Origin: Myxococcales bacterium
Lineage (GTDB): Bacteria > Myxococcota_A > Polyangia > Fen-1088
DNA length: 51,531 nt
Direction: 5' to 3'
Assembly (NCBI GenBank): GCA_003158395.1
Contig: PMIX01000238.1
Coordinates: 1-51,531 of the forward strand
Shown here in pieces: positions 5,309-50,170 of this stretch. A program made the translations under genes and the position numbers. Within the stretch, counting starts at the first letter, position 1; each line of letters opens with the position of its first letter. Under the pieces are notes generated by a model. It saw only the letters and a program-made list of their open reading frames with translations, did no database searches and was not told the origin of the DNA.

Positions 5309-7810
<2,502 letters not shown>

Positions 7811-7914
7811 GCGATCGCCACAGAAAACGGTCGCCGCAGGACGCTTGACAGGTCCCAGGGCGAAGACTAGTTTGGCGCCGCATTGACAACTGAATAGCGA
7901 CGCGGGCGCGGGGC

Positions 7915-8100
7915 CTCGACGGCCCCGCTGAAGAAGGGAAGCCGGTGCGCACTCAAGGGTGTTATCCCGGCGCGGTCCCGCCACTGTAAGTGGGAAGTCT
8001 TTTCCGATCACGGCCACTGGAGGACAACCTCTGGGAAGGCTGGAACAGGCGACGCGGCTCTGCCGCGAGACCCACGAGCCAGGAGACCTGCCCGAGTCAG
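7915..8100 (+). ncRNA. Cobalamin (B12) riboswitch
   Basis: Conserved core strings occur in the right order: AGGGAAGCCGGTG (7935-7947), CCCGCCACTGTAA (7977-7989), GCCACTGG (8013-8020), GGGAAGGC (8033-8040), and B12 box GAGCCAGGAGACCTGCCC (8076-8093). It lies directly upstream of a TonB-dependent receptor and a FecCD-type ABC importer. Boundaries are approximate. Confidence 0.8.
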
Positions 8101-8120
8101 CCACGATGCCTTCCCGAGGA

Positions 8121-8178
8121 GGAAGCGGGCGCCGAGATTGCAGCGACCGACCCCCGCTTCCGCCGACGGAACGGGGGT
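8121..8178 (+). promoter_or_regulatory. Putative riboswitch expression platform: two mutually exclusive helices, one covering the presumed RBS
   Basis: GGAAGCGGG (8121-8129) is the exact complement of CCCGCTTCC (8153-8161). ACCCCCG (8150-8156) is the exact complement of CGGGGGT (8172-8178). The latter lies 6 nt upstream of ATG 8184 and contains the only purine-rich RBS candidate. The two helices share nt 8153-8156. Confidence 0.35.
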
Positions 8179-8183
8179 TCTTC

Positions 8184-14228: not shown

Positions 14229-16391
14229 TCAGTTTGCGCCGCGTTTCGATCCTGTTTGATGGGGGATTGTGTTCAGCCGGGCCGCGCGCGTTTCATTGAG
14301 GTACTTGCGCGCCGCCGGCAGATCGGGATCGTCGGCATGGGCCCGCTGCACGAACCTCTCGCACGCGACGGCAAAGCGCGGAACATACGTGTCGTCGACG
14401 CGAGAGAGAAATTGGTAGGCCATGCCGAGATCCTTCCAGACCGATGGACCTAGCTCGAACTTGCGCGTTCCCGGCCACGCGGCGATCCCAAGCTCTTCAT
14501 CGCCGCCGGCCTTGGCAATGACGTCCTCGAGAAGACGAAGCGCGGTCCGCGTCGCATCGGGAGCATCGCCGCGCTCGTGAGCGTATTGGAGCGCGAGGTG
14601 TGCGCGCCCGGCCTGAGTACCGATGACCCGCTGACCGAGGGCCCGTTCCCAAGACTCGTCCGGCGCGCGGAGAGCCGGCGCGACATCGTAGGTGCCGATC
14701 GCCTGGCGATCCCGTTCGGCCCACTCTTCGTAGGTTGGGAACTCGTTCGCCCGAACCAGGGAACAAACCAGGCCGTAGACGGCCAGCTTGTACCCCTCTT
14801 GCCAGCTTTGATCCCAATCGCCAGGATGACCGATGAGGATGAACGGCCGGTTGGGATTGCCGTCGAGCAGTTGCTTGAGGTTCCAGCCGTGTTTCCCGTG
14901 GGCACCTTCGGGCAAATACACATCGGAATGAAAACGCCGCTTACGTGCCGTGTACCAGGGCTTGACCAGGTAGTCGCTATCCAGGTGAATGACGTCGGGG
15001 CGAAGCTTCTCGACTTCGTGGAGGTAGAAGACAGAGCCCGTGACATCGTCCCCCATCGCGGTGATCACGATGGCGTTGGGTGGAAGCGACGCGAAGGCGG
15101 TCGTGATGAAATCTCGAAGGACGGTGTTGTTCCGTCCGCTTGCCTGTCCCGCATGAACCGCGACACCAGTCGCGAACACGGCCCCAACGCCTACCGGTAC
15201 CAGGCGCAGCCATGGACTGCGCGGATCCAGCTTTTGCACCAAAGCAGCGAGACCAAACCCGGAGGCAATCGCCAACACCAGATCGGACTCGATGCAGAAC
15301 CGGCCGAGGATGCCTAGTAAATGCGGCATCGATGTCGACAGGTTGGACAGAGTGCAGAAGGTCAGGCTGTAGAAGCAGAAAATGAAGAGAAGAACAGAGG
15401 CCGCCCTCCGGGTCTGGCGATTCTTCATGCCAAGATGCAAGCCCGTCAGGGCGAGAAGAGGACCAAACCAAAGCAGACGGGGAAATGCGCGACCCCACAT
15501 ATGCCAGAGCGTCGGCAAGAACGTGCCCTGCGCGATGAAGACTGCTTGCCCACCTGTCCGACCCATGCTGAAGGTTCCATAGTTGAGGCGCAGAATGTGG
15601 GCAACGAGGCCGGCGATGCTGGTTTCATCGCCCCACGATACGGCCGCCGCCGAAGCAGAGGCTGGCATGAGGTAGAGGTAGGGGACCAGGCCAAGCAGCC
15701 CGAAGGCGAGAGCCAAGGCCACACCTCTTGCAGCGAGGTGGCGCCGTGCAGTCCATAGCGAGCACAAGGCCAAGGGCGCTCCGACAAACACGAAAGTGTG
15801 GTGGTTGCACATGGCGAGCCCACTAGCGAAGAACAACGCAAACACGTCGCGGCGGGAAAGCGTTCGCTCGACACGGGACCAGAGGTGGAAGGCCAAGGCC
15901 ACGAACATGGCATTGAGGCCGAACACCTCCGCCCCCGTGGCGTGCGACCAAACCAGTGGGTTTGTGCCAAAGAGCGCCGCTGCCAGCAGCCCGGCCACAG
16001 CGTTGCGCGTCCACGACCAAACCACGGCGCACACCAGGCCGCCCGCCGCTGCCGTCGACACAGCGGAGAGCAGATTCACGCGCCAAGCGGGCGAGTGCCC
16101 GAGCGGGAGCGCGGCGAAGAATCGAGCCAAGAGCGCGAACAGCGGATAGCCCGACGGATGGGGAACGCCACCAGTGAGCGCCGCCGCCGTGAGTTCGCCG
16201 CTATCACCCCCTGCCACCGACGGATGGAGGGTCGCGATGTAGAGCGCCACCAGGAAGAGAAAGGCCAGGAACGGAGCGAGCCGAGCCCACGCAGTCGGCT
16301 CGTCCAAGGAAGCCGGGAGCAAGGGTTTGCTATTCACACTTCTGGCAGCGGCGCGCCTGCGTTCTCTCGGTGGAGAATTGCGTTTTCTCAT
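14229..16391 (-). CDS. DUF2723 (TMEM260-like, GT-C-type) polytopic membrane protein, putative glycosyltransferase
   Basis: The N-terminal signature [42 protein letters not shown] matches the DUF2723/TMEM260 motif. There are ~11 TM segments followed by a ~300-aa soluble C-terminal domain. Confidence 0.8.
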
Positions 16392-34820: not shown

Positions 34821-34896
34821 TCGCGTGGGGAGCCCGCCGGCTTCGACGGCGGCGTACCATCGCGGGAGGGTTTGGGAACCCTCCCAGGGTTCCCAT
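34821..34896 (+). repeat. Intergenic repeat element, copy C (76 nt)
   Basis: TCGCGTGGGGAGCCCGCCGGCT...ACCATCGCGGGAGGGTTTGGGAACCCTcccAGGGTTCCCAT. It starts 1 nt after the metW stop and ends 3 nt before the stop of the convergent cytochrome gene. Confidence 0.85.
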
Positions 34897-34898: not shown

Positions 34899-35957
34899 CT
34901 ATTGGTGGCAGTACCGGCACATCGCCGTACCGTACACCTCAGGCAGGCTGTGTTTTCGCAACCACTGGATCGGGTGTGGATTGCCGCCGATGCCACCCAC
35001 CCGGTGACACCCAACGCAGTTCGAATTCGCTCCCTGATCGTGGCACGAGGCACAGTTCACGATGTCGCGCCGGGCGGGCACTGCGTGCGACGTAGGGCCG
35101 GGGTAGGCCCAGCCAGGCGGGTGCGGGCTGCGCGGGTTGCTGCCCCCAGGCCCAACATTCTCCTGGCTGTGGCAAGCGGTGCAGAAGCCCGTGCCATGGC
35201 AGCGCTGGCACAAAACCGGGTCCGAGCGTGCCTCGATGCTATGGCGGGTCAGGTAGTCGCCGCGGTGGATGAAGTCGCTGGAAACATTCTCGCTGAACTT
35301 GAGTTCTATGCGCGTGGGTACGGTCCCGGCGTGGCAGTCGGCGCAGAAGTTCTGGTCGTGGCACTGCACGCACGCATCGGCGGTCGCGTGCGCGACGCTG
35401 CCGTGCTGCCGGACGAAGTCGCCAGCGTGTGAGAACTCGGCCACCGGTTTGAGCGGGAATCGTTTGAGATCGGTGTGGCACTTCACGCAGCGACCTTCGT
35501 CGAAGTCGACCCTATGCTCATGGCACTTGGTACAGGACTTCATGGTCGGCGGCGTCGCCCCGGGCTGGGAGTACTCCGAAAGCTTCACGTGGCAAGCCGC
35601 GCAGTCGTCGTTGACCAGCTTGAGGTGAACCTTGTGCGAGATGATGACGGTGTGGGGCTCCGGCGGATAGGTCCCCGGGTGGGCCGGATCAGTGTGGCAG
35701 TAGCCACACTCTTTCTGCTCTTTCTTGTCGGCGTGACACTCCAGGCACTTGGCCTCCGGCGGCCGCAAGCGATCCGTGACGGTCGCGGCCTCGGGCACTT
35801 CCTCGTGGCACATCAGACACGGCACGTCCTTCGTGTGAACCGCGTGCGATTGCCGGATCTCCTCGCCGGGCTGCTTGGCCCGCCTTGTCCCCAGCATGGT
35901 CGCGCAGGCGGCGATGCCCAGCGTTAGCACCGCAACCCATGCCCTGCGGCCGCTCAC
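34899..35957 (-). CDS. 13-heme c-type cytochrome lipoprotein (cytochrome c3/c7-like multidomain)
   Basis: GTG start with GTGA overlap to the upstream gene. Lipobox LTLGIAAC. There are 13 CXXCH motifs in 352 aa (CLMCH, CLECH, CGYCH, CAACH, CTKCH, CVKCH, CVQCH, CADCH, CQRCH, CTACH, CASCH, CVGCH, CRYCH). Confidence 0.85.
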   Translation of the reverse strand: MSGRRAWVAVLTLGIAACATMLGTRRAKQPGEEIRQSHAVHTKDVPCLMCHEEVPEAATVTDRLRPPEAKCLECHADKKEQKECGYCHTDPAHPGTYPPEPHTVIISHKVHLKLVNDDCAACHVKLSEYSQPGATPPTMKSCTKCHEHRVDFDEGRCVKCHTDLKRFPLKPVAEFSHAGDFVRQHGSVAHATADACVQCHDQNFCADCHAGTVPTRIELKFSENVSSDFIHRGDYLTRHSIEARSDPVLCQRCHGTGFCTACHSQENVGPGGSNPRSPHPPGWAYPGPTSHAVPARRDIVNCASCHDQGANSNCVGCHRVGGIGGNPHPIQWLRKHSLPEVYGTAMCRYCHQ

Positions 35958-37222
35958 GGCGTGACCTCTTTCACCACGCGGCCTCCTTCATAGACGATCT
36001 TGAGCAGGCCTTCGATCTGGTGTGTGGCATAGGGGGTCACATTGTCCATTCCGGTCAGTACCGCGCGCCAGGCCGGCGCCACGTCATACACCAGACTGCC
36101 CGATCCGAAGAAAGAACGATCCTGACCGTTCAGCCGCTGGTCCAGGTCGTACGCATCGAAATCGGCAACCACGCGAATTTTCGTCGTGATGGTTTGCCAG
36201 CCAAACACGCGGCCCATGAGATAGCCGCCGCCTGGGATCCTCAGCCGCCGGCTCTCCACGCCGAGTCGCGTTCGCCCGCCGCTGCCCAGATGCAGGGTGG
36301 CCTTTCCGCCCGTGTTCCAACCCCATCCACTGGCGTCGTGGACCTCGTGAAAATCGCCTTGCAGGTCCAACCTGCGCGGCCATGGCCGCAGAGCCAGAAA
36401 GCCGCCAAACTCGTCGCGCGTCTCCTGGGCGAAGACTGCGAAGATCGAATAGCGCGGCAAGAAGAGATCCGGGGCCGTGCGCCGGTAGTCCCCGGTCACG
36501 TCCACATAGCGACAAGGCCGCCAGTTGATTGCCCCATCAGCCTCGGCCAACCGCGCCTCGGGAAGGCTCCACCGTGCCAGCCCACTGAGCGCGAGCGAAT
36601 CCAGCAACCGGTAGCGGGCGTCGACCCCTGCATCCCGGCGGGACATATGTCGGCCCGCCCCGAGGATTTCCAAGATCGACACGCCCACCTCTGATTCGTA
36701 CGAACGACTCCAGAACGCTCTTGCCCCGGTCGTGAACTGGCCCCGGCTGTAGCCGAAGCGTGGGGTGACTGGAACGCCAACGAATCCTGACAAGCCGAAG
36801 CCCGCCCCCACACGCAACGTAGGGGCAAGGCCGTCGAACTGGACGTTGGCCGCGGTCCCCGGAAACACGAACTGGCGGCCCACGCGCAGGGTCGCTCGCC
36901 GGTGCCAGGTCGAGCCCTGCAAGTAGGCCACATCCACGTCGCCCAGCGCGCTCTTTCCGTCGCGCGGATCGCCTGCCACGACCTCACCCCAGCCCGAAAC
37001 CACGATCTGCGTGTCGTCGAACATTGGGTTCTTGATCTCCGAAGCGCGCAAGGAAACCAGCTCGAGGAAGGGCACCACGGTGCGGACGGTGCCGTCGCGC
37101 GGATCGCGCTGGCCCGAGATGATTGTGGTCGCGCTCGCCGTGACGGTCTCAGCCCGGGCCAATCCAGTCCCCGCCACCAGCGCGGCCAGACCAGCGAGAA
37201 GAGGCCGCCATCTAGTCGCCAT
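35954..37222 (-). CDS. Putative outer-membrane beta-barrel (porin-like) protein encoded between two multiheme cytochromes
   Basis: Sec signal MATRWRPLLAGLAALVAGTGLARA. There is no heme motif. Many short amphipathic strand-like segments rich in G/R/aromatics run throughout (LRVGRQFVF, GFGLSGFVGV, VGVSILEIL, VDARYRLL, GKATLHLG, IRVVADFDAY, GSGSLVYDV). The barrel assignment comes from pattern only. Confidence 0.6.
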   Translation of the reverse strand: MATRWRPLLAGLAALVAGTGLARAETVTASATTIISGQRDPRDGTVRTVVPFLELVSLRASEIKNPMFDDTQIVVSGWGEVVAGDPRDGKSALGDVDVAYLQGSTWHRRATLRVGRQFVFPGTAANVQFDGLAPTLRVGAGFGLSGFVGVPVTPRFGYSRGQFTTGARAFWSRSYESEVGVSILEILGAGRHMSRRDAGVDARYRLLDSLALSGLARWSLPEARLAEADGAINWRPCRYVDVTGDYRRTAPDLFLPRYSIFAVFAQETRDEFGGFLALRPWPRRLDLQGDFHEVHDASGWGWNTGGKATLHLGSGGRTRLGVESRRLRIPGGGYLMGRVFGWQTITTKIRVVADFDAYDLDQRLNGQDRSFFGSGSLVYDVAPAWRAVLTGMDNVTPYATHQIEGLLKIVYEGGRVVKEVTP

Positions 37223-38897
37223 CGAAGACTCCGTTCATGTGGGTCGTGGTCAGGACTCCCGACCCGCTGGAAAAGATGATGTTTCCGGCAGAGTCTATGG
37301 TGCTGCCGTGGCAGGCGACACACCCGGTTCGTGTTACCCCGGTCGGGTGTCCCGAAAACTGTGGTGGGATGCCGTGACAGGTGGCGCCGCACGCGCCGCT
37401 GTCGGGTGAGACCCAGTTGGGCGTCTGCTGGATGCCCGGGGTCCTGTCTGTGTTGAGCGGCTCACCGCCGCCGTGACAGTACGCGCCCGAGCAAGTCGCC
37501 CGACTGCGATCCCATACCGGCGCCGCGCTCTGGGCCCGCGCCAACGTCCCCGAGCCGGGTACGTTGGGGAAGACCGCGGCCGCCGCGACTGTGCCGGGCG
37601 CGTGACCTGGGCCGAAATGGCCGGGGCTAAGCACGTTGGCCGGAACCTGATGGCACTCCGAGCACTGGATCGGGCCACGAATGTCGAGCTGGGGCGTTAC
37701 CAAATGCCGCTGGTGCTGCCCCACCCCGATGGCCCCTGGATCGGAATTCCCTTGTAGATCGGGAGGGGGCGCCGGGGAGGCGGCTGAACCGTGGCAGGTG
37801 TTGCAGGGCGTGTTCGCGTCAGCAAAATCGACCGTGCCGTTGAGGTGCAGGTTCGCGCTGATCAGGTTGGTCTGCGCGTCGACAACGTTGCGATGGCAAC
37901 TCGAGCAGCGGGTCCCGCCTGCGCCGTTGGGCGGAAGGCCGTGGCAGAAGGTGCAGGTTTGGGTCGCGGGTCGAGGCGCGGCATTCCAGCTTGGGTTGTT
38001 AGTCACCGCCGCCGAGTCGGCGGTGGTGGCGCCATGGCAGTAAACGTTGCTGCACGTTTGCAGGTTCGCATCCCAGGCCGGCGGCCCCGCGCGCGTTCCA
38101 TCGGCGGGCGTGAGCGCGGCCAGTCCAGCCACCAGCGAGACTTGTGCAGGGCCGGTGCGCAGTGAGCCGTCGAGCGCAAGACCGTGATCCTGAGCGCTCT
38201 TGTGATCCGGATGGCAAGTCGAACAAGTGAACTGCTTGGCCAGCAGGCCACCGTCAACGTGGATCTTGTGCTTGCCCGAGGCTGGCGTGGAAGCGTGGCA
38301 GGCTGCACAGGCTGGCGTACCGTCGGGATTCATCACCATGGGCTGCATGCCGCCCGAGCCCTGGTGGCACGACAAGCAAGACACCCCTGTCGCCCCACCG
38401 GAAAAGTCCTGGCCATGGCACTTCTGACAAACGCCGAAATTGAAGTTGGACTCGAGCAGAATCGTGCCGTGGAAGTCGGGCTGCGCAGGATCCAGAACCC
38501 CGGCCGTGTGCACCGAGGTTGCCTCCTGCAGATAGGTGGCCCGGCAGGCGACCACCCATTTCGTTGCCTGTTCGTAGACATCGGGCATCCCCAAATGCGG
38601 GCCGGTTGCCGTCACTGGGTTCAGCACGGAAAGGAGCTTGGAACGACCATCGCCCGCGACCACATCTGGCGTCGTGCCCGCCCCCAGGGCGAGATTGTAG
38701 GTCGTCGTGTCGTAGCCACCCTGGGCCGGGCCCCCGTCTCCAGACGAGTGGCATTGGCTGCATCTCTCCTTGAAGAGTGGCCCGATGTTGTTCTCCCAAT
38801 CGGGGCAAGCGCGAGGGTCATTGACCAGTGGCCGCGCCTTCGCACATCCAAGGATTGAAACAGCCAGAGCGACTCCTGCGGCAAGACTGTGTTTCAT
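37212..38897 (-). CDS. Multiheme c-type cytochrome lipoprotein with CX4CH...CXXCH (Geobacter-type) repeat units
   Basis: ATG 38897 gives MKHSLAAGVALAVSILGC (lipobox). It has 10 CXXCH, 2 CX4CH (CSNVYCH, CSGAYCH) and 1 CX3CH (CGATCH). Its stop overlaps the start of the barrel gene by 11 nt. Confidence 0.85.
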   Translation of the reverse strand: MKHSLAAGVALAVSILGCAKARPLVNDPRACPDWENNIGPLFKERCSQCHSSGDGGPAQGGYDTTTYNLALGAGTTPDVVAGDGRSKLLSVLNPVTATGPHLGMPDVYEQATKWVVACRATYLQEATSVHTAGVLDPAQPDFHGTILLESNFNFGVCQKCHGQDFSGGATGVSCLSCHQGSGGMQPMVMNPDGTPACAACHASTPASGKHKIHVDGGLLAKQFTCSTCHPDHKSAQDHGLALDGSLRTGPAQVSLVAGLAALTPADGTRAGPPAWDANLQTCSNVYCHGATTADSAAVTNNPSWNAAPRPATQTCTFCHGLPPNGAGGTRCSSCHRNVVDAQTNLISANLHLNGTVDFADANTPCNTCHGSAASPAPPPDLQGNSDPGAIGVGQHQRHLVTPQLDIRGPIQCSECHQVPANVLSPGHFGPGHAPGTVAAAAVFPNVPGSGTLARAQSAAPVWDRSRATCSGAYCHGGGEPLNTDRTPGIQQTPNWVSPDSGACGATCHGIPPQFSGHPTGVTRTGCVACHGSTIDSAGNIIFSSGSGVLTTTHMNGVFDGD

Positions 38898-38985: not shown

Positions 38986-39027
38986 TGCAAGTTATCCGAT
39001 AGGCAAAAGTGACTAAATCAGTGTCGC

Positions 39028-39852: not shown

Positions 39853-41247
39853 CTAGCCCTTCTTAAAGTCCTCTGAGCGAACACTGTAGCGCTTGAGCAG
39901 GCGATGGAGACTTTCGCGCTCGATGCCAGCCCGCTCGGCGGCGCGGGTCACGTTGCCGTCGAACTCGCGCATGAGCACGGCCAAATATTCCCGCGAGATG
40001 CGGTCCCGCGCGGTCTCCATGGCCTCGCGGTAGGGCATCCTGACCAGCACCTCGGCCGGAAGCGCGCCCACCTGGGCGCCCCGCAGCTCCGCCGGCAGAT
40101 CGCGGATGTCGATCTCCTTTCCGGCCGCGATAGCCACCGCGCGCTCGATGGCGTTCTCCAACTCGCGCACGTTGCCCGGCCAGTTGTAGGCCGTCAGCGC
40201 CCGCAGAGCCGCGTTGCCGATCCCCGTGACATCGCGCTTGCCGCTGCGCGTGTGTTTGGCGAGAAAGTGGGCCGCCAGCGCCGGGATGTCCTCGCGTCGC
40301 TCGCGCAAGGCGGGCATGCGGATGGGGAAAACGTGCAATCGGTAGTAGAGATCCTCACGGAACCGTCCTGCCTGTACCTCGGCCTTGAGGTCCCGGTGGG
40401 TGGCGGTGATGATCCGCACGTCGACCGGGAACGACTTGTTCTCGCCCACCCGACGGATCTCCCTGTCCTGCAGAACCCGATTCAGCTTCACCTGAACCGG
40501 CAAGGGCAGCTCCCCCACCTCGTCCAGGAACAGCGTGCCGTGGTTGGCTTCCTCAAACAGGCCCGGTTTGCTGGCAGCCGCGCCGGTGAAGGCACCCTTG
40601 GCGTGGCCAAAGAGTTCGCTCTCCACCAACTCGGCCGGCAGCGCGCCAGAGTTCACCGGAACGAAGCGATTGTGTTTGCGCCCACTGTGGTAGTGCACCG
40701 CACGCGCCGCCAGCTCCTTGCCCGTGCCGGTTTCCCCGGTGAGCAGCACCGTCATGTCAAGCCCCGCGGCCCGCTCCAGAAGACCGTACACCTCGCGCAT
40801 GGGCGGGCTCTTGCCGACCATGTTGTGGAACGAGTTCACACCCTCCAGCTCCTTGCGCAGGCTCACCGTCTGTGCGCGCAGGCGTCGGCGCTCCAGGGCG
40901 CGCGCCACCACCAGCGCCGCGGCGTCGGGATCAAAGGGCTTCTGGATGTAGTCGTACGCGCCCTGTTTCATGGCCTCGACCGCGTCGGGAACCGAGCCGT
41001 AGGCAGTCATCAAGACCACCTCGGTCTCGGGCCAGCGCGCTTTGACGGATTCCAACACCGTGAAGCCACTGGCACCCGGCATCTTGAGATCGGTCACCAC
41101 CACGTCGTACTCGTGCTCCGCGATCAGCGCCAAGGCCTTGGCGCCGTCGCTGGCGGTGCTGAGGTTGTGCTCGTCGCCCAGGATCTTGGCGAACAGCTTG
41201 AGCATGTTCTCCTTGTCGTCCACCACCAACACGGAAGGCTGGTTCAT
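39853..41247 (-). CDS. Sigma-54-dependent response regulator (NtrC family: REC-AAA+-Fis HTH)
   Basis: REC domain (VLVVDDKENM...VVVTDLKMPG), Walker A GETGTGKE, the GAFTGA motif (ESELFGHAKGAFTGA), VRELENAIERAV, and a C-terminal HTH (GNVTRAAERAGIERESLHRLLKRY). Confidence 0.9.
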   Translation of the reverse strand: MNQPSVLVVDDKENMLKLFAKILGDEHNLSTASDGAKALALIAEHEYDVVVTDLKMPGASGFTVLESVKARWPETEVVLMTAYGSVPDAVEAMKQGAYDYIQKPFDPDAAALVVARALERRRLRAQTVSLRKELEGVNSFHNMVGKSPPMREVYGLLERAAGLDMTVLLTGETGTGKELAARAVHYHSGRKHNRFVPVNSGALPAELVESELFGHAKGAFTGAAASKPGLFEEANHGTLFLDEVGELPLPVQVKLNRVLQDREIRRVGENKSFPVDVRIITATHRDLKAEVQAGRFREDLYYRLHVFPIRMPALRERREDIPALAAHFLAKHTRSGKRDVTGIGNAALRALTAYNWPGNVRELENAIERAVAIAAGKEIDIRDLPAELRGAQVGALPAEVLVRMPYREAMETARDRISREYLAVLMREFDGNVTRAAERAGIERESLHRLLKRYSVRSEDFKKG

Positions 41248-42713
41248 GTCGTGTCTCCTTTGGGGCGCGGCAAGCGTATGACGAAGCAGGTGCCGCCCGG
41301 TCCGGGCGGCTCGGCGACGATCTCGCCACCATGGGCGCGCGCGATAGCTTGCGAGACCGCCAGGCCCAGACCGGTTCCGCGCGGCTTGTTCGTGAAAAAA
41401 GGTTCGAACAGGCGCTCGCGCGCCTCCGCATCCAGGCCCGGACCTGAATCACGAACCGTCACCTGCGAACGCTCCCCGTTGTCTCCGACATGGATCTCGA
41501 CGCGTCCGGCGGGAGCAGCCGCCTCAACCGCGTTCTTGATGAGGTTGAACAGAACCTGGCGCAGCTTGGACGCCGTGCCCGTGACGCCACCCTGCCCCGT
41601 GACCGCCACAGTCACGCCCGGTGTCGGCGCCGCTTCCGCAAGCCGTGCCACCACGTCGTCGCATAGCGCGCGCAGGTCCACGCGCTGCGATCCGACCACG
41701 ACTGGCCGCGAAAAATCGAGGAGTCCCTCCACGATCTCCTGACAGCGCAGGACCTCTTCCTCCACGATCGCCAGATCGTCGCCCAGCGGCCCGACCGCCT
41801 TTTTGCGCAAAAGGCGCGTGTACCCCAGGATCACTCCCAACGGGTTGTTGATCTCGTGTGCCACGCCGGCGGCCAGGCGGCCCACGCCGGCTAGGCGCTC
41901 GCTCTGCAGGAGACGGTGCTGCTGTTCCTTGAGCGATGCGACCATGTTGTTGAACTGCCGGGCCAGGTCGCCGAATTCGTCGTTGCCGCCAACTGCGATG
42001 CTGGTATCCAGGTCGCCGGCTGCCAGCCGTTCTGCTCCGGCATGGAGAAGCGCAACCGGCCGCGCAACCTTGCGGCCAAGATAGACGGCCACTCCCCCGG
42101 CCAGAAGCGGCGCCAGCACCAGGAAGAACACGCTCCAGCCCAAGGTCCGATCGCGGGTTGCCTGGGCAAATGACTGCAGGTCCCCGATGGCGTCTTCGAA
42201 GCGCTTGGCCAAAAGATCGGTTCGTTGCTGAATGCGGCCTACCACGGCCAGGGCGCGCGCATGCTCGACATGGGCGTCCGCGGTCCGACCGGAGAGCACG
42301 GCCGGCACGATCTGCCGGCTGAAGATGCTGTCCAATTCGGCGGCACCGGCCTCGATGTCGTCGACCCAGGCGCTCTCGTCAGGCCTTTCCGCCCGCTCGC
42401 GCAAGTCATTGATCAGGGTGAGAACCCGTGCTTTGGCTTCGGAATAGAAGCCGAGATGGCTGTCGTTGCCGATGATAATGGTGTGGGCTTGGTGGGCGTA
42501 CTGGTCGCGCACGGCGCTGGCCAAATCCAAGGCCAAACGCATGCTGTCCATTCGCGCGCGCGTCCGGGCCAGACCGCGGTTGACCTGGGCGAAACCGAGC
42601 AGCGCGATCGACGTGGCGCCAGCGTAGAGCGCGATCAGTGCCGCAAACGCCAGCGCCAACCGCCGCGCGGTTCCGGAGCGGACGCCAATCATGCTGAAGA
42701 CCGACGGTGACAT
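41244..42713 (-). CDS. Sensor histidine kinase (helical periplasmic sensor, HAMP, HisKA, HATPase)
   Basis: Two TM segments, HAMP (AAGDLDTSIAVGGNDEFGDLARQFNNM), H-box GVAHEINNPLG, N-box LIKNAVEA, and G-boxes DSGPGL / GTGLGLAV. 4-nt overlap with the response-regulator gene. Confidence 0.85.
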   Translation of the reverse strand: MSPSVFSMIGVRSGTARRLALAFAALIALYAGATSIALLGFAQVNRGLARTRARMDSMRLALDLASAVRDQYAHQAHTIIIGNDSHLGFYSEAKARVLTLINDLRERAERPDESAWVDDIEAGAAELDSIFSRQIVPAVLSGRTADAHVEHARALAVVGRIQQRTDLLAKRFEDAIGDLQSFAQATRDRTLGWSVFFLVLAPLLAGGVAVYLGRKVARPVALLHAGAERLAAGDLDTSIAVGGNDEFGDLARQFNNMVASLKEQQHRLLQSERLAGVGRLAAGVAHEINNPLGVILGYTRLLRKKAVGPLGDDLAIVEEEVLRCQEIVEGLLDFSRPVVVGSQRVDLRALCDDVVARLAEAAPTPGVTVAVTGQGGVTGTASKLRQVLFNLIKNAVEAAAPAGRVEIHVGDNGERSQVTVRDSGPGLDAEARERLFEPFFTNKPRGTGLGLAVSQAIARAHGGEIVAEPPGPGGTCFVIRLPRPKGDTT

Positions 42714-42940
42714 TCGCGGTTACAGTGTAGCCGAAACGGTCAACGCCCGCCAAGGCGCGAGGACAAATTGTGCAAATATGATGGGCAGCGGGCCTGCCCG
42801 GCATGGCCCGCCATCATGTATGATCGCGCGATGGCCACCTCGTTCCTAAGCCTCATGGGAGCGCTGCGCTCCTCCCAACTGTACCCCCGGCGACCTTGCA
42901 CTTGAGAACCTTGCCCGCCCGACGACGGCTGCACGTTGCC

Positions 42941-44458
42941 ATGGCAGCTCTCGCGCGCCACGAAGCAGCCCTGCTGTTCGTTTGTGTAACGAGCGTCTAT
43001 CTTCTCACGCGGTACCCCGCTGTGGGGGGGAGATACCAGTGGGGCGACGCCGCCAAGTGGCAGTACCTCGGCTCCATTCTGGGTGTCTCTCACCCGCCTG
43101 GCAGTCCGCTTTATGTCCTGCTCACATTTCTTTGGTCGAAGCTGCCACTTGGTACGGGGCTGGGCGCGAAGATCATGGCCTTCTCCTCTGTCTGCGGCGG
43201 TGGCGCGGTGTCTTTGCTATACGCAAGCGCGCGGCGGCTGTCCTTTTCGCGGGCAGCGTCACTTCTTGCCGCAGGGGTGTTCGCGTTTTCTCTGCCCGTT
43301 TGGGTCTTCTCCACCGAGGCCGAGGTCTATTCGGCGTTTGCGTTGAGTATGGCTTTCGTCATTCACCGCGCGTTGCTGTGGAGGACAGGCCTACGCGACC
43401 GAGATCTCTGGGCGGCCTATTTCGTCTACGCGCTTTCGTTCTCGATCCACTACATGGCCATCACCTACTTCTTGCCGTTGGCCATGCTGTTGGTAGGAAC
43501 AAACTGGCGCGCGATTCTTCGCCCGACCAACGTGCTCATGGCGCTCGCAGCGATCATGGCGGGTTTGTTGCCGATGCTCTGGCTATGGTTTCGGATCCCC
43601 GGGGCAGACTACAACGAGTTTCCAGGGCCGAGAACTTGGCCGAAGTTCATCGATTTCCTCCTCGCACGCCAATACCGCAACACGATGTTTTCATTTACGT
43701 TGAAGCAGATGTGCTTCGACCGAATCGGTTGGGGCGTGTCAAGACTCGGTCGGTTCATGGGGTTCCCACTCCTGGCGGTCGTACCCATAGGCGTGCCGTG
43801 TCTTGCGCGGGTGGCCCGGCTCGTGGCCGCGTTTGCTGTGGTGGGGTTCCTCGCGCCTTTTCTGTTTTGGGTGGGCTACGCTCGGGGAGACGAGTTGGCG
43901 GGAGCCATCCCCGTCTTGATGATAGCGGGGATTCTTGTGGCGTCGGTTTTCGACTCCCTAGCTTCAACGGTCACGCCTCGTTGGGTGCGCATCAGCGTCT
44001 CCCTTGTCGCGATAGCATCCGCTGCAATCAGTCCCATCGCCACCGCTGCGGAATTTGCCCAGCATGATCCCGCGGTCCATTTCACCTATGCCGTCGACTC
44101 GATTCCGAAGTACCGCTGGGACGTCGCCTGCATAGTCCAGCAGGCTGAGCCGAATGCCACGATCGTGCCGCCGTACGGCGACTACGGTTCGAGACAGATC
44201 GTCTACTACCACCGCTATGCCGATCCCGTCGTGAAGGCAAAGCACCTCACGTTCAGATACTTCTTCGCAGCTCCCAGCGAATGGGCGTGGGCGCCTCCGT
44301 CGTGGACGCCTGATCCGTCAGAACCCGGTCCCATATATTTCTACTCCGGCAGCTACGTCGATCGGTTCCGTCGCTCCGGATTCCGCGTCGAAGAGACAAC
44401 CATGGGCGCCTGTGACGGCAAGGGAGGTACTTTGCCGTTCTATCGCGCGTCGCATTAA
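42941..44458 (+). CDS. DUF2723 (TMEM260-like) polytopic membrane protein, second and shorter paralog
   Basis: YLLTRYPAVGGRYQWGDAAKWQYLGSILGVSHPPGSPLYVLLTFLW parallels the N-terminal signature of the 14229-16391 paralog. It is multi-TM. ATG 42941 is favoured over the TTG at 42896. Confidence 0.75.
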   Translation: MAALARHEAALLFVCVTSVYLLTRYPAVGGRYQWGDAAKWQYLGSILGVSHPPGSPLYVLLTFLWSKLPLGTGLGAKIMAFSSVCGGGAVSLLYASARRLSFSRAASLLAAGVFAFSLPVWVFSTEAEVYSAFALSMAFVIHRALLWRTGLRDRDLWAAYFVYALSFSIHYMAITYFLPLAMLLVGTNWRAILRPTNVLMALAAIMAGLLPMLWLWFRIPGADYNEFPGPRTWPKFIDFLLARQYRNTMFSFTLKQMCFDRIGWGVSRLGRFMGFPLLAVVPIGVPCLARVARLVAAFAVVGFLAPFLFWVGYARGDELAGAIPVLMIAGILVASVFDSLASTVTPRWVRISVSLVAIASAAISPIATAAEFAQHDPAVHFTYAVDSIPKYRWDVACIVQQAEPNATIVPPYGDYGSRQIVYYHRYADPVVKAKHLTFRYFFAAPSEWAWAPPSWTPDPSEPGPIYFYSGSYVDRFRRSGFRVEETTMGACDGKGGTLPFYRASH

Positions 44459-44726: not shown

Positions 44727-44780
44727 ATTCGACATAGTTTGCGCGACCTTGGCAGCCGTCCTTCCGGAGGTAACAGGCCC

Positions 44781-47246
44781 ATGACAGGAAACCGTCTTTC
44801 TCGATTGGCAATCTGTCTTTCTGTTGGTTTCAGTTTGGCGGCATGTACGGGCGCTCGCGGCCCAACCGGGCCTGCGGGCGAAGCGGGTCCACCGGGACCT
44901 CCAGGCCCTCCAGGCGAAGCTGGTCCTCCCGGACCTCGAGGCCCCGGGATTGATGCCTCATCTGCCGGAGATGGGCCAATCGGCAAGCCTCCGACCGTGA
45001 CGATCGCTGGCTCCACGCAGACTGCTGGGTTTGGCGCACCGGTCACCCTAGTTGGCGCCGCAACCGACCCCGACTCGGACGTCAGCACGCTCACGTACAC
45101 GTGGGTCCAAACTGGTGGCCCCACGGCGACTTTGACCGGAGCCGGCAGCAAGACTCTGAGCTTCACCACACAAGCCCTGGCCGATGCAAAAACCCCTGTG
45201 ATGGCCCAGCTTCACTTCGGCGTGCTTCCCGTCAGCCCGGACGAAGCCGGAAATTACTCCTTTGAATTGGATGTCACTGATCCACAAGGCAACGTGGGCA
45301 AGGCCACGGCTACGGTCCGCTCGAACCCGCCCACCGCGGGACTACAGAATGTTCCCGTCGGCATCCGCCAGTTTCTGATGGGTGACGGTGGAACTCAGAC
45401 GACTTGGAACTGGAGTCTGGACGCAACGGGGGCGACTGGCTCAAATGCCACCCTGGCGAGCGCTACCACGCAGTTTCCCAGCTTCATCCCTGATGTCGTG
45501 GGCAGCTACACCCTGACCGAGGCGGTGTCAACCAAGACGCTCACCATCGTCGCGGGCAATTGGCGTGGCATGATGACCGACTACGCGACAAACTGCCAGA
45601 CCTGTCACAACGACACGATCGCTCCGGATGTGTTCACGCCGTGGTCCAAGACGGCTCACGGGATCGCCGTACAGCACAAGCTCGACGGGACCTACTCCGA
45701 TGGGGTGACGCCGCTGACCTACTTTCCGCGCTCCTGCATGGAATGCCACACCGTGGGCGACTCGCCGGCAGCGGTCAACAACGGCTTCGATGACGTCGAA
45801 AAGACCAGCGGCTGGACCATGCCCACCAAGCTGCAGCCAGGCAACTGGGAGAACCTGCTGACGAACTACCCCGATCTGGCCAAGTTGGCCGGCATCCAGT
45901 GCGAAAACTGCCACGGTCCGCAAGACGGCGCGATCGGGCACCTCTCGACCGCGCACACTACGTCCAGCCACACGACCCCCGACAAGTGGACGCGCGTGTC
46001 GTTCTCCGAGGGTGTTTGCGCCTCCTGCCACCAGGACGCAAGCCACCACTACAAGCCGAGCCAATGGGCGACGTCCGCCCACGCCCAGCGCGACCTCGTC
46101 TCCAACGCCACCTTTGAGTCCCGTGGGACCACGGCGGCCCACTGCGGCCGGTGCCATTCGGCCCAAGGCTTTGCTGCGTACTCAGCCCAGCTGGCTGCGG
46201 GAGACGCGGGCCTGCTGCACAAGCCCGATGGCAGCGCGGCCGACGAGGCCTATCTGCGCGGGCTAGGCCTGCAGTCTTCCACCGTCGAGGCGATCACCTG
46301 CGCGGCCTGCCACGATCCGCACGATGCCAAGAACCCCGGCCAGCTTCGTTTGGGCGGAGACCTCAAGGCGTTGCCCAACGGCCTAACCAACATCTCCGAC
46401 GCGGGCAAGGGTGCCACCTGCATGGCCTGTCACAATACCCGGAACGCTGAACACGATGACTTCGTCGCTGCGGCCACCGATTTCTCGGGCCCACACACGC
46501 CTTCGCAAACCGACCTGCTCTACGGGTTCAACGCGTACTTCATGCCGCGTCTCAATCCATCCCCCCACCTATCAGTGACCGATACCTGCGCGGGCTGTCA
46601 CGTGGCCGTACCCACTGCCACCGAGAAGGCCGCGGGACAAACCGACAACCACAACTTCGCCACCGACGACACCGTCTGCGCCTCTTGCCACTCGTCGTCG
46701 ACCAACGGAGAGGCTCTGCTGGCTGCCAACAACGCGCAACTTGGCGAACTGAGTGCCGCGATCGGAACAAAGGCCCTGGCCATCATCGATGCCCTGTACA
46801 CCGCCGGAAACACACTTTCTGTGCGGGCATACCGACAGCTGACCGATCAGTACAGCTCCGCGGCTGCCACCACAGCCAACGTTCTCTTGTCCACCGCACC
46901 CACCGCGGTCGTCCTCCGTTCCGCCATCCACGGGACGACTTCCTTCACCCTAACTCTGGCCGCGCCAGTGGACGTCACTTGGGTAGCGACAGCGTCCGCC
47001 CCCGCCAGTACCGAGACCTTGGCGCAGATCGACTGCCAGATCAGCGGCATCACCATCACAGGCCAGAGCGCGCCGCCTGTGCCGCCCGCCTTGACAGGCG
47101 CACCGGTGCCCGCCATCGCGACGAATTCGGTGGTGGCCAAGGCGAGCTGGAACCTGCAATTGCTCAGCAACGACGGCTCGAGAGGCTTGCACAATCCTGA
47201 CTTCTTCCAAGACGTGATTGTCAACACCCTGGAAGCCCTGCAATAG
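44781..47246 (+). CDS. Lipoprotein 9-heme c-type cytochrome with N-terminal collagen-like triple-helix repeat and PKD/Ig-like domains
   Basis: GGAGG lies 10 nt upstream of ATG 44781. Lipobox GFSLAAC, then (Gly-X-Y)11. PKD-like segments follow (VTLVGAATDPDSDVSTLTYTWVQTGGP; YSFELDVTDPQGNVGKATATV). Nine CXXCH motifs: CQTCH, CMECH, CENCH, CASCH, CGRCH, CAACH, CMACH, CAGCH, CASCH. Confidence 0.85.
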   Translation: MTGNRLSRLAICLSVGFSLAACTGARGPTGPAGEAGPPGPPGPPGEAGPPGPRGPGIDASSAGDGPIGKPPTVTIAGSTQTAGFGAPVTLVGAATDPDSDVSTLTYTWVQTGGPTATLTGAGSKTLSFTTQALADAKTPVMAQLHFGVLPVSPDEAGNYSFELDVTDPQGNVGKATATVRSNPPTAGLQNVPVGIRQFLMGDGGTQTTWNWSLDATGATGSNATLASATTQFPSFIPDVVGSYTLTEAVSTKTLTIVAGNWRGMMTDYATNCQTCHNDTIAPDVFTPWSKTAHGIAVQHKLDGTYSDGVTPLTYFPRSCMECHTVGDSPAAVNNGFDDVEKTSGWTMPTKLQPGNWENLLTNYPDLAKLAGIQCENCHGPQDGAIGHLSTAHTTSSHTTPDKWTRVSFSEGVCASCHQDASHHYKPSQWATSAHAQRDLVSNATFESRGTTAAHCGRCHSAQGFAAYSAQLAAGDAGLLHKPDGSAADEAYLRGLGLQSSTVEAITCAACHDPHDAKNPGQLRLGGDLKALPNGLTNISDAGKGATCMACHNTRNAEHDDFVAAATDFSGPHTPSQTDLLYGFNAYFMPRLNPSPHLSVTDTCAGCHVAVPTATEKAAGQTDNHNFATDDTVCASCHSSSTNGEALLAANNAQLGELSAAIGTKALAIIDALYTAGNTLSVRAYRQLTDQYSSAAATTANVLLSTAPTAVVLRSAIHGTTSFTLTLAAPVDVTWVATASAPASTETLAQIDCQISGITITGQSAPPVPPALTGAPVPAIATNSVVAKASWNLQLLSNDGSRGLHNPDFFQDVIVNTLEALQ
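44850..44948 (+). repeat. Collagen-like Gly-X-Y repeat, 11 uninterrupted triplets (coding)
   Basis: GAR GPT GPA GEA GPP GPP GPP GEA GPP GPR GPG, read directly from 44850-44948. It begins 2 residues after the lipobox Cys. Confidence 0.9.
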
Positions 47247-47381: not shown

Positions 47382-48887
47382 ATGCCGGTGCTGCCCAAGT
47401 CGCTTTCTCCCACCATCGCCAGACTGGCCAACTACGCGAGAAATCCGCTCACGGTCCTCGGCTTTGGACTGACGACGCTGTCAGGGCTCGCCTTGATCGT
47501 CTTCCTCGCGCTCGAGGTGGGGGGCCAGGTCGACAATCCGTACACCGGGGTGTTCGGCTCAGCCTTTCTGCCCTTGCTCTTCGTGGGCGGGCTGCTGCTC
47601 ATGCCAATCGGCATCCTTCGGCGACGCCAGGCGTTCATGAGCAGCGGTCAGTCACCCGACGCCATCACGACCTACCCGAAGCTGGATTTCAACGATCCGC
47701 ACCTGCGACGTGTGGCCCTGGTCATCGCCGCGCTCACCGTGATCAACGTCGTGGTACTCGCGACAAGCTCGGTCGTGGGGCTGAATTTCATGGACACACC
47801 GAAGTTCTGCGGAACCGTGTGCCACAGGGTCATGCGGCCGGAATACACGGCCTACCAGAATTCACCGCACGCGCGGGTCAAGTGCGTTCAATGCCACATC
47901 GGACCGGGCGCCTCCTGGGCGGTCCGTTCCAAGTTCGATGGCCTACGCCAGGTGTGGAAGGTGATGACCGGGACCTATGCCCACCCCATTCCCTCGCCCG
48001 TGCACACGCTCCGCCCGGCGCGCGACACCTGCGAAAGCTGCCACTGGCCAGCCAAGCACTACGGCGACAAGCTGCGCGTTGTTGGCCGCTTTGCCGAGGA
48101 CGACAAAAACAGCGCCAGCTTCACCGCGCTGTTGCTCAGGACTGGCGGCGGCGCCTTTGGGGCTGGCCAGCCTCACGGCGGGATCCACTGGTGGCACATC
48201 TACGCCGACAATCGCATCCGCTACTTGGCCACGGACCAACGCCGGCAAGAGATCGCCTGGGTCGAGCTGACCACTCCCGACGGAATGAAGACGGAGTTCA
48301 CGCGCGAGGGCGCGAACCTCCCGCCTCCGGACAGCATCCAAAGATCAGCGCGCGTGATGGACTGCATCGACTGCCACAATCGGCCGACTCACCTGTTTGA
48401 GACCCCGGCCAAGGCCGTTGACAGTGTCCTGCAGCGGCAGGCGGATCTGCGATCCCTGCCGTTCCTCAAGCGGGAGACGGTCAAGGCGGTCTCGGCGGTC
48501 TACCCCAGCCACGACGAGGGCATGGCCGCAGTCCGCCAGAGTGTGACCGCCTTCTACCGCAAATCCTATCCGGAGATCGCTGCACGCGACGGCAAGCTGG
48601 TTTCGCGGGCTGCGGACGAGGCAGCTGGGGTGTACGATCGTACGGTGTTCCCCGAGATGAACACCAATTCCAAGACCCACCCCAACAACATCGGACACGA
48701 CGACTCGCCGGGCTGCTTCCGCTGCCACGACGGCAGCATGAAAGCGTCCAAGGGCGACCAGGTCATTCCCAATGATTGCGACACCTGCCATGCCATTCTG
48801 GTCGACGGCAGCCCCAGCGAGCCTGACCTCAGCCAGCTCGTGCTGGCGCCGCCCGTGGTTCCTGCCCCCTCGGAGGCCAAGCCGTGA
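47382..48887 (+). CDS. Membrane-anchored multiheme cytochrome, NapC/NirT-like (candidate quinol dehydrogenase)
   Basis: GAAGAGG SD, ATG 47382. Three predicted TM helices (LTVLGFGLTTLSGLALIVFLAL; FLPLLFVGGLLLMPIGIL; VALVIAALTVINVVVLATSSVV). Then FCGTVCHRVMRPEYTAYQNSPHARVKCVQCH, a NapC/NirT-like pattern. Five CXXCH motifs plus one CX3CH. Confidence 0.8.
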   Translation: MPVLPKSLSPTIARLANYARNPLTVLGFGLTTLSGLALIVFLALEVGGQVDNPYTGVFGSAFLPLLFVGGLLLMPIGILRRRQAFMSSGQSPDAITTYPKLDFNDPHLRRVALVIAALTVINVVVLATSSVVGLNFMDTPKFCGTVCHRVMRPEYTAYQNSPHARVKCVQCHIGPGASWAVRSKFDGLRQVWKVMTGTYAHPIPSPVHTLRPARDTCESCHWPAKHYGDKLRVVGRFAEDDKNSASFTALLLRTGGGAFGAGQPHGGIHWWHIYADNRIRYLATDQRRQEIAWVELTTPDGMKTEFTREGANLPPPDSIQRSARVMDCIDCHNRPTHLFETPAKAVDSVLQRQADLRSLPFLKRETVKAVSAVYPSHDEGMAAVRQSVTAFYRKSYPEIAARDGKLVSRAADEAAGVYDRTVFPEMNTNSKTHPNNIGHDDSPGCFRCHDGSMKASKGDQVIPNDCDTCHAILVDGSPSEPDLSQLVLAPPVVPAPSEAKP

Positions 48888-50170
48888 GATATCTCGGCAT
48901 GGTCGGTCTGACCGTGCGCCGAGGACAGCAGGAAGGGCTGGCGAAATACACTTTCAGTCCGCAGGAGCGTGAGGTCCAGGCCAAGGCCCTTCACCAGGCC
49001 TGCGACTTCCTCGAAAGCGTGTACCTGGCCACCTGCAATCGGGTCGAGGTGATCTTCTTGTGCCGCCGGGGCACCCCAGTTTCCGAGTATCGCAGGCGCA
49101 TCCACGGGTTCTTCGCAGCGCGCAGCCAAGCCGGAACGGCCAAGGAGCCGACGGCGCGGATCGCAGCCCAGGGCCTGCACGCCTACGAGAAGGATGGCGC
49201 GGCCGAACACCTTTTCTGCGTGGCCGCGGGTCTCGACTCGCTCAACCCTGGCGATTCCCAGATTCTGGGCCAGGTCAAGGATGCGTTGCAGGTGGCGCAG
49301 CGGCTGGGGTTGGCCGGCCCGCACCTGCAGCTAGTCTTTGAAGAAGCCTTCCAGGCGGCCAAACGCGTGCGCAGCAAGACCAGCCTCGGGGCCAGGCCGG
49401 TATCCATGGTTTCGCTGGCCTTCAACCTCATCGACGCACGGACCAAGGGGCCCGCCACGGTGGCGCTCATCGGAGCGGGCGAGATGACACGCCAATGTGG
49501 CGAGCATTTGCGCGGCCGGGCCGAGTGCAACCTTCTCTTCGTCAACCGCACGGTGAGCAAGGTGGTCGAGCTCGCCGCCTCCTGTGGCGGCCGCGCCTTG
49601 GCCCTGGATGCTTTTCTGGCAGCGCCCGGGCATGTGGAGGTCATCGTGACCGCCACCTCGGCGCGCGAGCCTCTCCTCGGACGCGCGTTCTTTGCAGCCC
49701 TGCAGGGCTCGGCGCCGGTGGTGATTGATCTGGCCGTACCCCGCGACACCGACGTGCAGGCCGCCGCGGCCGCAGGAGTTCAGTTGTTCGACATCGACCA
49801 CCTGAAGGCCGAGGCTGAACACAACCGGCGGGCGCGCGAGGCCGAGATCGCCGAGGCTCGGATCATCATCGACGAAGCCCTCGAGGCGCTCCGCCGGCGG
49901 GTGTTCGAGCGCGACATCAGTCCCATTGTGCGCGACTTGCGCAGCCAGGGCCAGGCGGCGGCCGACGAGTTGCTCAAGCAGCTTTTCGACAACGGCCTTG
50001 CCAAGCTGGACGAGGTGCATCGCGACCACATCCGGCGTTTCGGCCAGCAGGTCGTCAATCGACTTCTGCACCTGCCGACCGTGGGGCTGAAGCGTCTGGC
50101 GCAGGACCACGGCATGGAAGCGGTAGAGGCTTTCTTGCAGGGCGTGCGTGACGACCACCACGGGCAGTAG
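48884..50170 (+). CDS. hemA: Glutamyl-tRNA reductase
   Basis: Active-site region VYLATCNRVEVIF, SLNPGDSQILGQVK, and NADPH site ALIGAGEMT. The GTG 48884 start overlaps the upstream stop (GTGA). Alternative ATG at 48899. Confidence 0.9.
   Translation: MRYLGMVGLTVRRGQQEGLAKYTFSPQEREVQAKALHQACDFLESVYLATCNRVEVIFLCRRGTPVSEYRRRIHGFFAARSQAGTAKEPTARIAAQGLHAYEKDGAAEHLFCVAAGLDSLNPGDSQILGQVKDALQVAQRLGLAGPHLQLVFEEAFQAAKRVRSKTSLGARPVSMVSLAFNLIDARTKGPATVALIGAGEMTRQCGEHLRGRAECNLLFVNRTVSKVVELAASCGGRALALDAFLAAPGHVEVIVTATSAREPLLGRAFFAALQGSAPVVIDLAVPRDTDVQAAAAAGVQLFDIDHLKAEAEHNRRAREAEIAEARIIIDEALEALRRRVFERDISPIVRDLRSQGQAAADELLKQLFDNGLAKLDEVHRDHIRRFGQQVVNRLLHLPTVGLKRLAQDHGMEAVEAFLQGVRDDHHGQ

Follow-up and report, generated by a model that had tools for sequence, protein, structure and literature searches.

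In the MtrCAB conduit of Shewanella (PDB 6R2Q), the decaheme cytochrome MtrA is sheathed by MtrB, a barrel of 26 strands. The porins of the porin-cytochrome (Pcc) and Ext systems co-evolve with their inner cytochromes, and it is the outer lipoprotein cytochrome that is free to be exchanged (PMC4245776, PMC6148476). Among the Pcc clusters, Shi, Fredrickson and Zachara described in 2014 a group IV from Anaeromyxobacter, consisting of a porin-like protein and a 12-heme c-type cytochrome of 338-344 aa in a two-gene cluster (PMC4245776). The ExtABCD system of Geobacter sulfurreducens (GSU2645-2642) has the dodecaheme ExtA, predicted to be soluble, a heme-free barrel with 18 predicted strands and a 12-heme lipoprotein as outer partner (PMC6148476). 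In peat, Acidobacteriota and Verrucomicrobiota have lineage-specific, sequence-divergent clusters of porins and multiheme cytochromes, the latter with 8-13 hemes (bioRxiv 10.64898/2026.05.27.727921). Here we present an analysis of a three-gene cluster in an uncultured peat-soil myxobacterium of the class Polyangia (Myxococcota). The window, by which we mean the whole stretch analysed, is the 51,531 nucleotides of contig PMIX01000238.1 (assembly GCA_003158395.1), and the three genes are named cytA, barrel and cytC in the order of transcription. We estimate a probability of about 0.7 that they encode a porin-cytochrome conduit, in which cytC threads the barrel, cytA sits outside and electrons pass outward across the outer membrane.

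In every detail that could be checked, the open reading frames (ORFs) in the window agree with a preliminary description of the locus made from its letters, which had given three minus-strand genes with these sizes and overlaps. The genes are translationally coupled: cytA and barrel overlap by 11 nt (ATGGCGACTAG), and barrel and cytC by GTGA, with Shine-Dalgarno-like GGAG and AGAGG (read by eye) 6-7 nt 5' of the two internal starts, those of barrel and cytC. Among the stop-to-stop ORFs of at least 60 aa in the window, more than one heme motif is found only in those of four cytochrome genes, namely cytA, cytC and two at 44.7-48.9 kb; since the other ORFs have at most one motif, the motifs of cytA and cytC are far beyond chance.

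The protein between the two cytochromes has a cleavable signal peptide (...GLARA/ETV), one Cys and zero heme motifs. With 62 homologs as input, AlphaFold2 models it confidently, with a predicted local distance difference test score (pLDDT) of 85.4 and a predicted template-modelling score of 0.72. The model is all beta, the sole helix being the signal peptide, and its 23 strand elements in DSSP accord with the strand-like segments noticed earlier throughout the sequence. Elements 24-35 and 38-42 jointly pair with the 19-residue strand 45-63 and are counted as one, which makes 22 strands; the large barrel of at least 16 strands anticipated in the preliminary description is thus modelled with about 22. 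Pcc porins have 18-22 predicted strands (PMC4245776), and the model would place the barrel at the top of this range. The loops are short on both faces, except residues 152-162 and 250-268. The latter segment, between strands E240-249 and E269-278, is the longest inter-strand loop and the only one with pLDDT below 50; it is spanned by the strongest conserved motif of the family, RRTAPDLFLPR.SIF.VF.QETRDE (residues 247-271), with invariant and near-invariant columns. This motif is kept in the Anaeromyxobacter members that have no cytA, and may be a cytochrome-contact or constriction element. The matches that Foldseek gives in the PDB are all large outer-membrane barrels, including the 24-strand usher pores PapC/FimD, MOMP and the 18-strand Occ porins, with E down to 4e-8 and template-modelling (TM) scores of at most 0.54; such matches are generic and support a large outer-membrane barrel and nothing finer, and MtrB is absent from the top 50 of them. 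In sequence, no family is found for the barrel in Pfam, NCBIfam or the PDB, whether the single sequence, the profile or all 62 family members are searched, the only weak matches being those of three members to LptD (E 0.011). The profile retrieves nothing at E up to 10 from the PDB, which includes MtrB. Judged by these searches, the barrel represents a sequence family of its own with no curated model. As to its lumen, TonB-dependent receptor barrels of similar size enclose a plug domain of about 150 residues, and because they do, a slender heme wire could fit in a barrel of about 22 strands.

The third protein, cytC, starts with GTG and has the lipobox LGIAA/C. Its 13 CXXCH motifs are as described before, at a density of one per 27 residues (about 26 in the mature protein) in place of the roughly 25 first given. 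It matches Pfam Cytochrome_C7 (5.5e-17) and the nanowire_3heme model, and among PDB entries it comes closest to 3OV0, a 'cytochrome c family protein' by its deposited name, with which it aligns in four stretches (E 1.5e-16). 3OV0 is GSU1996, an elongated 12-heme cytochrome of G. sulfurreducens, known as a 'nanowire', that is made up of c7-type triheme domains. Across 65 cytC homologs, the 13 CXXCH motifs and 13 further His are invariant or nearly so; because these 13 extra His are conserved beside the motifs, the pattern implies bis-His ligation, that is, 13 electron-transfer hemes and no catalytic site. A reading of cytC as a catalytic reductase was rejected, as there is no CXXCK motif and a distal His is conserved for every heme. 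The lipobox is a family feature as well: 116 of 120 cytC homologs have its Cys where the signal h-region ends, followed at position +2 by Ala in 80 and by Lys in 0. In M. xanthus lipoprotein sorting, a +2 Lys leads to inner-membrane retention (PMC3222651), and this mark is absent from both cytA and cytC. It is found in the 12-heme partner at 5 of 8 Anaeromyxobacteraceae loci (L033, L034, L037, L040 and L050) against 0 of 116 Polyangia-type 13-heme homologs, and judging from these sequences, sorting of the partner cytochrome may not be the same in the two branches.

The first protein, cytA, starts with ATG (the ORF is extendable to a TTG at 38990) and carries the canonical lipoprotein signal MKHSLAAGVALAVSILG before its lipobox Cys (...SILG/C). 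Ten CXXCH, two CX4CH and one CX3CH make up its 13 heme sites, in line with the 13 motifs of three kinds that had been reported for it. It matches TIGR01904 (the CxxxxCH/CxxCH domain, E 1e-20), Pfam GSu_C4xC__C2xCH (PF09698) and c3/c7-type segments. The motif order X2x5-X4-X2x4-X4-X3/X2-X2 and the lipobox are conserved in full-length 13-heme homologs from related loci, and shorter homologs with 12 and 8 hemes retain the corresponding part of this order. In Pcc systems atypical heme motifs have been reported in outer-membrane cytochromes only, never in inner ones (PMC4245776), and by its CX4CH and CX3CH sites cytA resembles the outer-membrane cytochromes.

The linkage of the three genes was then followed through the barrel family. 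Its 160 word-indexed homologs are all annotated as hypothetical, the named ones being Polyangia, and an exhaustive profile search of 1.84 billion representatives gives 970 matches (representative clusters) at E <=1e-3, of which 276 reach E <=1e-30. With each GTDB species represented by one genome, a scan finds 49 barrel loci, an undercount of the family, as the scan motifs miss the Anaeromyxobacter branch. Among them, 45 are in metagenome-assembled genomes (MAGs) of Myxococcota type, labelled Polyangia, Myxococcales, Archangium, Anaeromyxobacteraceae or with the older 'delta proteobacterium'; three are labelled just Proteobacteria or Pseudomonadota, and one is a 255-bp fragment from an unidentified bacterium. 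Linkage was counted by tblastn of the window proteins against the 49 loci, five of which are cut by contig ends downstream of the barrel. A homolog of cytC, a 12-13-heme lipoprotein, lies directly downstream in all 44 loci with enough DNA there, with a gap of 0-6 nt or an overlap where the starts were inspected, so the co-occurrence with cytochromes expected of a conduit barrel is found without exception. In comparison, cytA is directly upstream of the barrel at about 29 loci, mostly in Polyangia-type MAGs. It is 3' of cytC in the Archangium-type loci L031, L032 and L035, on the opposite strand in L019, about 5 kb downstream of cytC in L030, and missing from eight Anaeromyxobacteraceae-type loci, which have the barrel and a 12-heme lipoprotein alone, as does the cultured A. 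diazotrophicus. The barrel and cytC are the conserved core of the family.

The Anaeromyxobacteraceae barrels are 34-38% identical to that of the window, and the copy in L033 is 67% identical to that of A. diazotrophicus, AMYX_06140 (GEJ55873.1), which has the UniRef name 'Alginate export domain-containing protein'. Their 12-heme partner of 344-381 aa comes directly after the barrel, with no third cytochrome. A. dehalogenans was not recovered among the 150 listed barrel profile matches and two cluster look-ups, where the divergent matches are nameless. In addition, some MAGs have two paralogous cytA-barrel-cytC clusters (L015 and L020 in PNAM01, L017 and L026 in JAJXSP01), and at many loci the cluster is flanked by one or two further multiheme ORFs of about 800-1300 aa stop-to-stop, mostly with 10 motifs, and by small ORFs with 4-5 hemes.

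Overall, a heme-free barrel between multiheme cytochromes, which had been read in the preliminary description as a porin-cytochrome conduit, has the support of both the predicted fold and the linkage. In the conduit that we propose, the 422-aa protein would form an outer-membrane barrel of about 22 strands. Threaded through it would be cytC, an elongated chain of c7-type triheme units in which every heme is bis-His; anchored in the outer membrane by the lipid at its N-terminus, cytC would be an insulated heme wire that spans the membrane, in the role of MtrA, OmaB and ExtA in the known conduits. Because barrel and cytC are invariant, and are the sole unit in Anaeromyxobacteraceae, cytC must be able to cross the membrane with the barrel. 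We assign to cytA the replaceable outer role because its position varies or it is absent, as is the case for the outer cytochromes of Pcc and Ext, and we place it on the outer face because atypical motifs have been reported only in outer-membrane Pcc cytochromes; there cytC would pass electrons to it, and it would correspond to OmcB, ExtC/D or MtrC. We infer that the proteins form a physical complex. The electrons would probably come from menaquinol through a NapC/NirT-type 6-heme membrane cytochrome at 47.3 kb, and probably exit through cytA and a stalked MtrC-like lipoprotein at 44.7 kb, to acceptors which are probably insoluble, for example Fe(III)/Mn(IV) minerals or the humic matter of peat.

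Several points weigh against this proposal. First, the barrel has no detectable sequence relation to MtrB, the Pfam model MtrB_PioB being negative for the window protein and the 62 members. Second, the AlphaFold2 model of cytC is of moderate confidence (pLDDT 72) and Foldseek gives no structural match for it, heme-free models of multiheme cytochromes being judged uninformative for this protein. Third, a lipid anchor on the threaded cytochrome has no precedent in MtrA, OmaB and ExtA, which are predicted to be soluble (PMC6148476), and the topology could differ. Fourth, the assignment of the recovered Anaeromyxobacter pairs to group IV of Shi et al. goes by matching architecture and sizes, and is probable and not certain. 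Finally, a sigma-54 promoter was sought upstream of cytA because the adjacent regulator is a sigma-54 activator, and no -24/-12 match was found there within 2 mismatches, the counts across the window being those of chance.

The same hardware could also work inward, taking up electrons from extracellular donors such as Fe(II), reduced humics or a partner cell, as in MtoAB/PioAB. Direction is unreadable from sequence, and published conduits run both ways, that of Rhodopseudomonas inward (PMC6148476). Moreover, in L019 and L051 a Rieske protein and two monoheme c cytochromes of the cbb3 type are encoded ahead of the barrel (in L051, a Polyangia-type MAG, at 9048-9991 and 7710-8216), a setting that would sooner be expected of oxidative chains, which hints that some members of the barrel family join an oxidative, electron-uptake chain. 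However, the linked inner-membrane partner is of the NapC/NirT/NrfH type both in the window and in L008-L012, a surface cytochrome with an MtrC/MtrF domain is close by, and the cultured Anaeromyxobacter relatives reduce metals, with a Pcc cytochrome that responds to Mn(IV) reduction: Adeh_3392 of A. dehalogenans is reported to be more abundant under Mn(IV)-reducing conditions (Nissen 2012, as cited). We therefore regard inward flow as unlikely, with a small chance of being right. The roles of the two cytochromes might instead be swapped, with cytA entering the barrel from the periplasmic side and cytC exposed as a lipoprotein at the surface. Both are lipoproteins, so their localisation signals do not discriminate, and it is cytA that is the first gene and shares the 11-nt overlap with the barrel gene. 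Yet cytA is the one that is absent in Anaeromyxobacteraceae and relocated in Archangium-type clusters, while cytC always adjoins the barrel; with the restriction of atypical motifs to outer-membrane Pcc cytochromes and the slender c7-polymer build of cytC, this leaves the exchange a slim chance. Lastly, it is very improbable that there is no trans-membrane wire at all, the barrel being a diffusion porin or an export/assembly pore beside periplasmic or surface reductases that are not threaded, since the top structural matches to secretion pores (usher PapC/FimD) and substrate porins are generic (TM <=0.54), and the weak LptD matches of three members and the route to the surface that both lipoprotein cytochromes would need are set against 44/44 adjacency and translational coupling to one cytochrome family, which argue for a stoichiometric complex, very short loops that leave an open sleeve, and hemes that are only of the bis-His electron-transfer kind with no catalytic-type site.

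With the outward conduit as the preferred reading, the neighbouring genes offer candidates for the remaining steps (Table 1). The lipoprotein of 835 aa, with lipobox LAAC/T, then 11 Gly-X-Y triplets, a PKD domain and an MtrC/MtrF domain II/IV region, has an order of parts that suggests a surface cytochrome on a stalk; the collagen-like stalk would imply a trimer, and by its domains the protein is a candidate extracellular terminal reductase of the pathway. No paper pairing 'collagen-like' with 'multiheme cytochrome' was found in the literature searched. In L051, an 838-aa protein of similar architecture adjoins a cytA homolog. The 10-heme ORFs of about 900-1000 aa in other loci were tried as homologs of the 835-aa protein and rejected, having no tblastn similarity to it except in close relatives. 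The cytochrome of 524 aa belongs to the NapC/NirT/NrfH-type family, which acts as quinol dehydrogenase, and from its sequence it is a candidate for the inner-membrane quinol dehydrogenase that would feed the conduit; NapC-type homologs are directly upstream of cytA in L008, L009, L010 and L012, and nearby in L046. Both genes are 6-10 kb from the conduit operon, on the plus strand, and it is plausible that they supply its terminal surface reductase and quinol dehydrogenase.

Just upstream of cytA, on its strand, lies the two-component system, a candidate regulator by synteny only, with a HAD hydrolase gene in between. The order of histidine kinase, response regulator, HAD hydrolase, cytA, barrel and cytC is kept in the close-clade loci with enough upstream DNA (L001, L002, L005, L006 and L007; L003 and L004 are cut short), even in L007, where barrel identity falls to 53%. 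Upstream of cytA no sigma-70-like promoter was found. The hairpin after cytC likely marks the end of the operon; it matches the consensus type and no more, and the region has no excess of such sites over shuffles. Two homologs of TMEM260-like/PMT_2-type protein O-mannosyltransferases are also present in the window, one of them between the two-component system and the gene of the 835-aa surface cytochrome, and glycosylation of envelope proteins is possible. The remaining window is housekeeping, with Lon, Tgt, QueA and a BamB-like protein, and with Der, Era and MetX/MetW read from translations alone; because of this we regard the locus as part of the chromosomal core and not as an island.

Table 1. 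Positions in the window of the conduit genes and of the neighbouring features discussed in the text.
Feature	Position	Strand	Basis
cytA, lipoprotein multiheme cytochrome, 561 aa, 13 sites	37212..38897	-	ORF, motif count, TIGR01904/Pfam domains
barrel, heme-free secreted protein, 422 aa, predicted outer-membrane beta-barrel of about 22 strands	35954..37222	-	ORF, AlphaFold2, Foldseek
top conserved motif of the barrel family, residues 247-271	36410..36484	-	conserved alignment columns, AlphaFold2 loop
cytC, lipoprotein, 352 aa, 13 CXXCH, c7-type triheme units	34899..35957	-	ORF, motifs, Pfam Cytochrome_C7
perfect 10-bp palindromic hairpin between convergent cytC and metW	34873..34895	.	4 nt past cytC stop
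sigma-54-dependent response regulator	39853-41247	-	Pfam domains; candidate regulator by synteny only
HAMP histidine kinase	41244-42713	-	Pfam domains; candidate regulator by synteny only
O-mannosyltransferase homolog (TMEM260-like/PMT_2-type)	42896-44458	+	
O-mannosyltransferase homolog (TMEM260-like/PMT_2-type)	14229-16391	-	
lipoprotein, 835 aa, collagen-like stalk, PKD domain, MtrC/MtrF-type multiheme region (9 motifs)	44739..47246	+	Pfam domains
NapC/NirT/NrfH-type membrane-anchored 6-heme cytochrome, 524 aa	47313..48887	+	Pfam domains
hemA (glutamyl-tRNA reductase)	48884-50170	+	start overlaps stop of the 524-aa cytochrome gene

The barrel family is widespread in peat and soil Myxococcota. 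The closest relatives of the window are MAGs with isolate names starting with 'fen_' or 'MFD', and fens, bogs and wet soils commonly harbour Polyangia and related Myxococcota. If the conduit works as proposed, Polyangia would respire minerals or humic matter, which bears on the turnover of peat carbon and the CO2:CH4 balance, a question that is now asked of other peat phyla. With no curated model the barrels are annotated as 'hypothetical', and marker-gene screens based on curated models likely miss these conduits; a profile from the barrel alignment would make them countable in metagenomes.

Below we compare the locus with the known systems. In MtrCAB the design is shared, namely a barrel-insulated cytochrome wire with a lipoprotein cytochrome outside; the window has a smaller barrel, and 13 hemes per cytochrome instead of 10. 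The DmsE/MtrA decaheme model TIGR03508 gives 15.4 bits for cytC and 26.8 bits for cytA against a cutoff of 192.2, and on neither feature, the barrel family or a decaheme inner partner, do the sequences fall within the Mtr family (MtrCAB/MtoAB/PioAB). GSU1996 shares the c7-type build with cytC, which supports an elongated bis-His heme chain, and differs in that cytC has 13 hemes and a lipid anchor; GSU1996 is a soluble periplasmic protein that is not known to be encoded beside a barrel. The Pcc prototype OmaB-OmbB-OmcB of Geobacter likewise combines a heme-free barrel with two multiheme cytochromes, one of them inner and the other, with about 12 hemes, a lipoprotein of the outer membrane. Unlike it, the window has 13 hemes in the inner cytochrome and not the 8 of OmaB, and the Geobacter order is ombB-omaB-omcB; the likeness to the Geobacter barrels is architectural. 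The ExtABCD system shares with the window the order of a cytochrome, a barrel and one or more lipoprotein cytochromes. Its barrel has 18 predicted strands versus about 22 in the window barrel, and ExtA, by prediction a soluble protein of the periplasm, comes from the first gene, whereas cytC, the likely inner partner in the window, is a lipoprotein from the last gene. The peat clusters of Acidobacteriota and Verrucomicrobiota are from the same type of habitat in other phyla, with Myxococcota and Polyangia unmentioned there (bioRxiv 10.64898/2026.05.27.727921).

The nearest comparison is with group IV of Anaeromyxobacter, which belongs to the same phylum, and whose two-gene, 12-heme architecture is identical in the Anaeromyxobacteraceae homologs recovered here. 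The window differs from it by a 13-heme partner and an extra 13-heme lipoprotein upstream, cytA. The partner of group IV was called 'periplasmic' (PMC4245776), whereas the Anaeromyxobacteraceae homologs that we found all bear lipoboxes. This match to a catalogued architecture further weakens the claim of the preliminary description that the locus is a distinct type of conduit, for which three differences had been put forward. Gene order does not serve as one, since extABCD of Geobacter also runs cytochrome-barrel-cytochrome (PMC6148476). Nor do the mixed CX4CH/CXXCH sites, which are those of a known Geobacter domain (TIGR01904), and atypical motifs are typical of Pcc outer cytochromes (PMC4245776). 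The third, that both cytochromes are lipoproteins, holds and is conserved across the family, and together with the barrel family of its own it is the part of the claim that stands.

The features of the Pcc class are thus present, namely a heme-free barrel of about 22 predicted strands, an adjoining multiheme cytochrome and an outer lipoprotein cytochrome, the last being optional in some Pcc clusters; the departure is that the adjoining partner, cytC, is predicted to be a lipoprotein and not soluble. A lipid-anchored threaded cytochrome might amount to a mode of assembly unlike Mtr, Oma and Ext. The Polyangia anchor with +2 Ala would then pin a 13-heme wire to the outer membrane, and in Anaeromyxobacteraceae the version with +2 Lys would perhaps be tethered to the inner membrane, spanning the whole periplasm as a wire of about 10 nm that plugs into the outer-membrane barrel without soluble carriers. 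We hold this to be a speculative extension, doubtful and yet with some chance of being true. The conserved lipid anchor on the partner cytochrome in any case sets the family apart from the Mtr, Pcc and Ext paradigms in a way that can be tested, with cultured Anaeromyxobacter as a possible experimental system. On the whole, with function judged from anatomy, conservation and analogy, it is well supported that the locus is a lineage-specific version of the known porin-cytochrome design, with relatives catalogued in 2014 and no new principle; what differs, as read from the sequences, is that the barrels form a family which lacks a curated model and that their obligate partner cytochrome bears a conserved lipid anchor.

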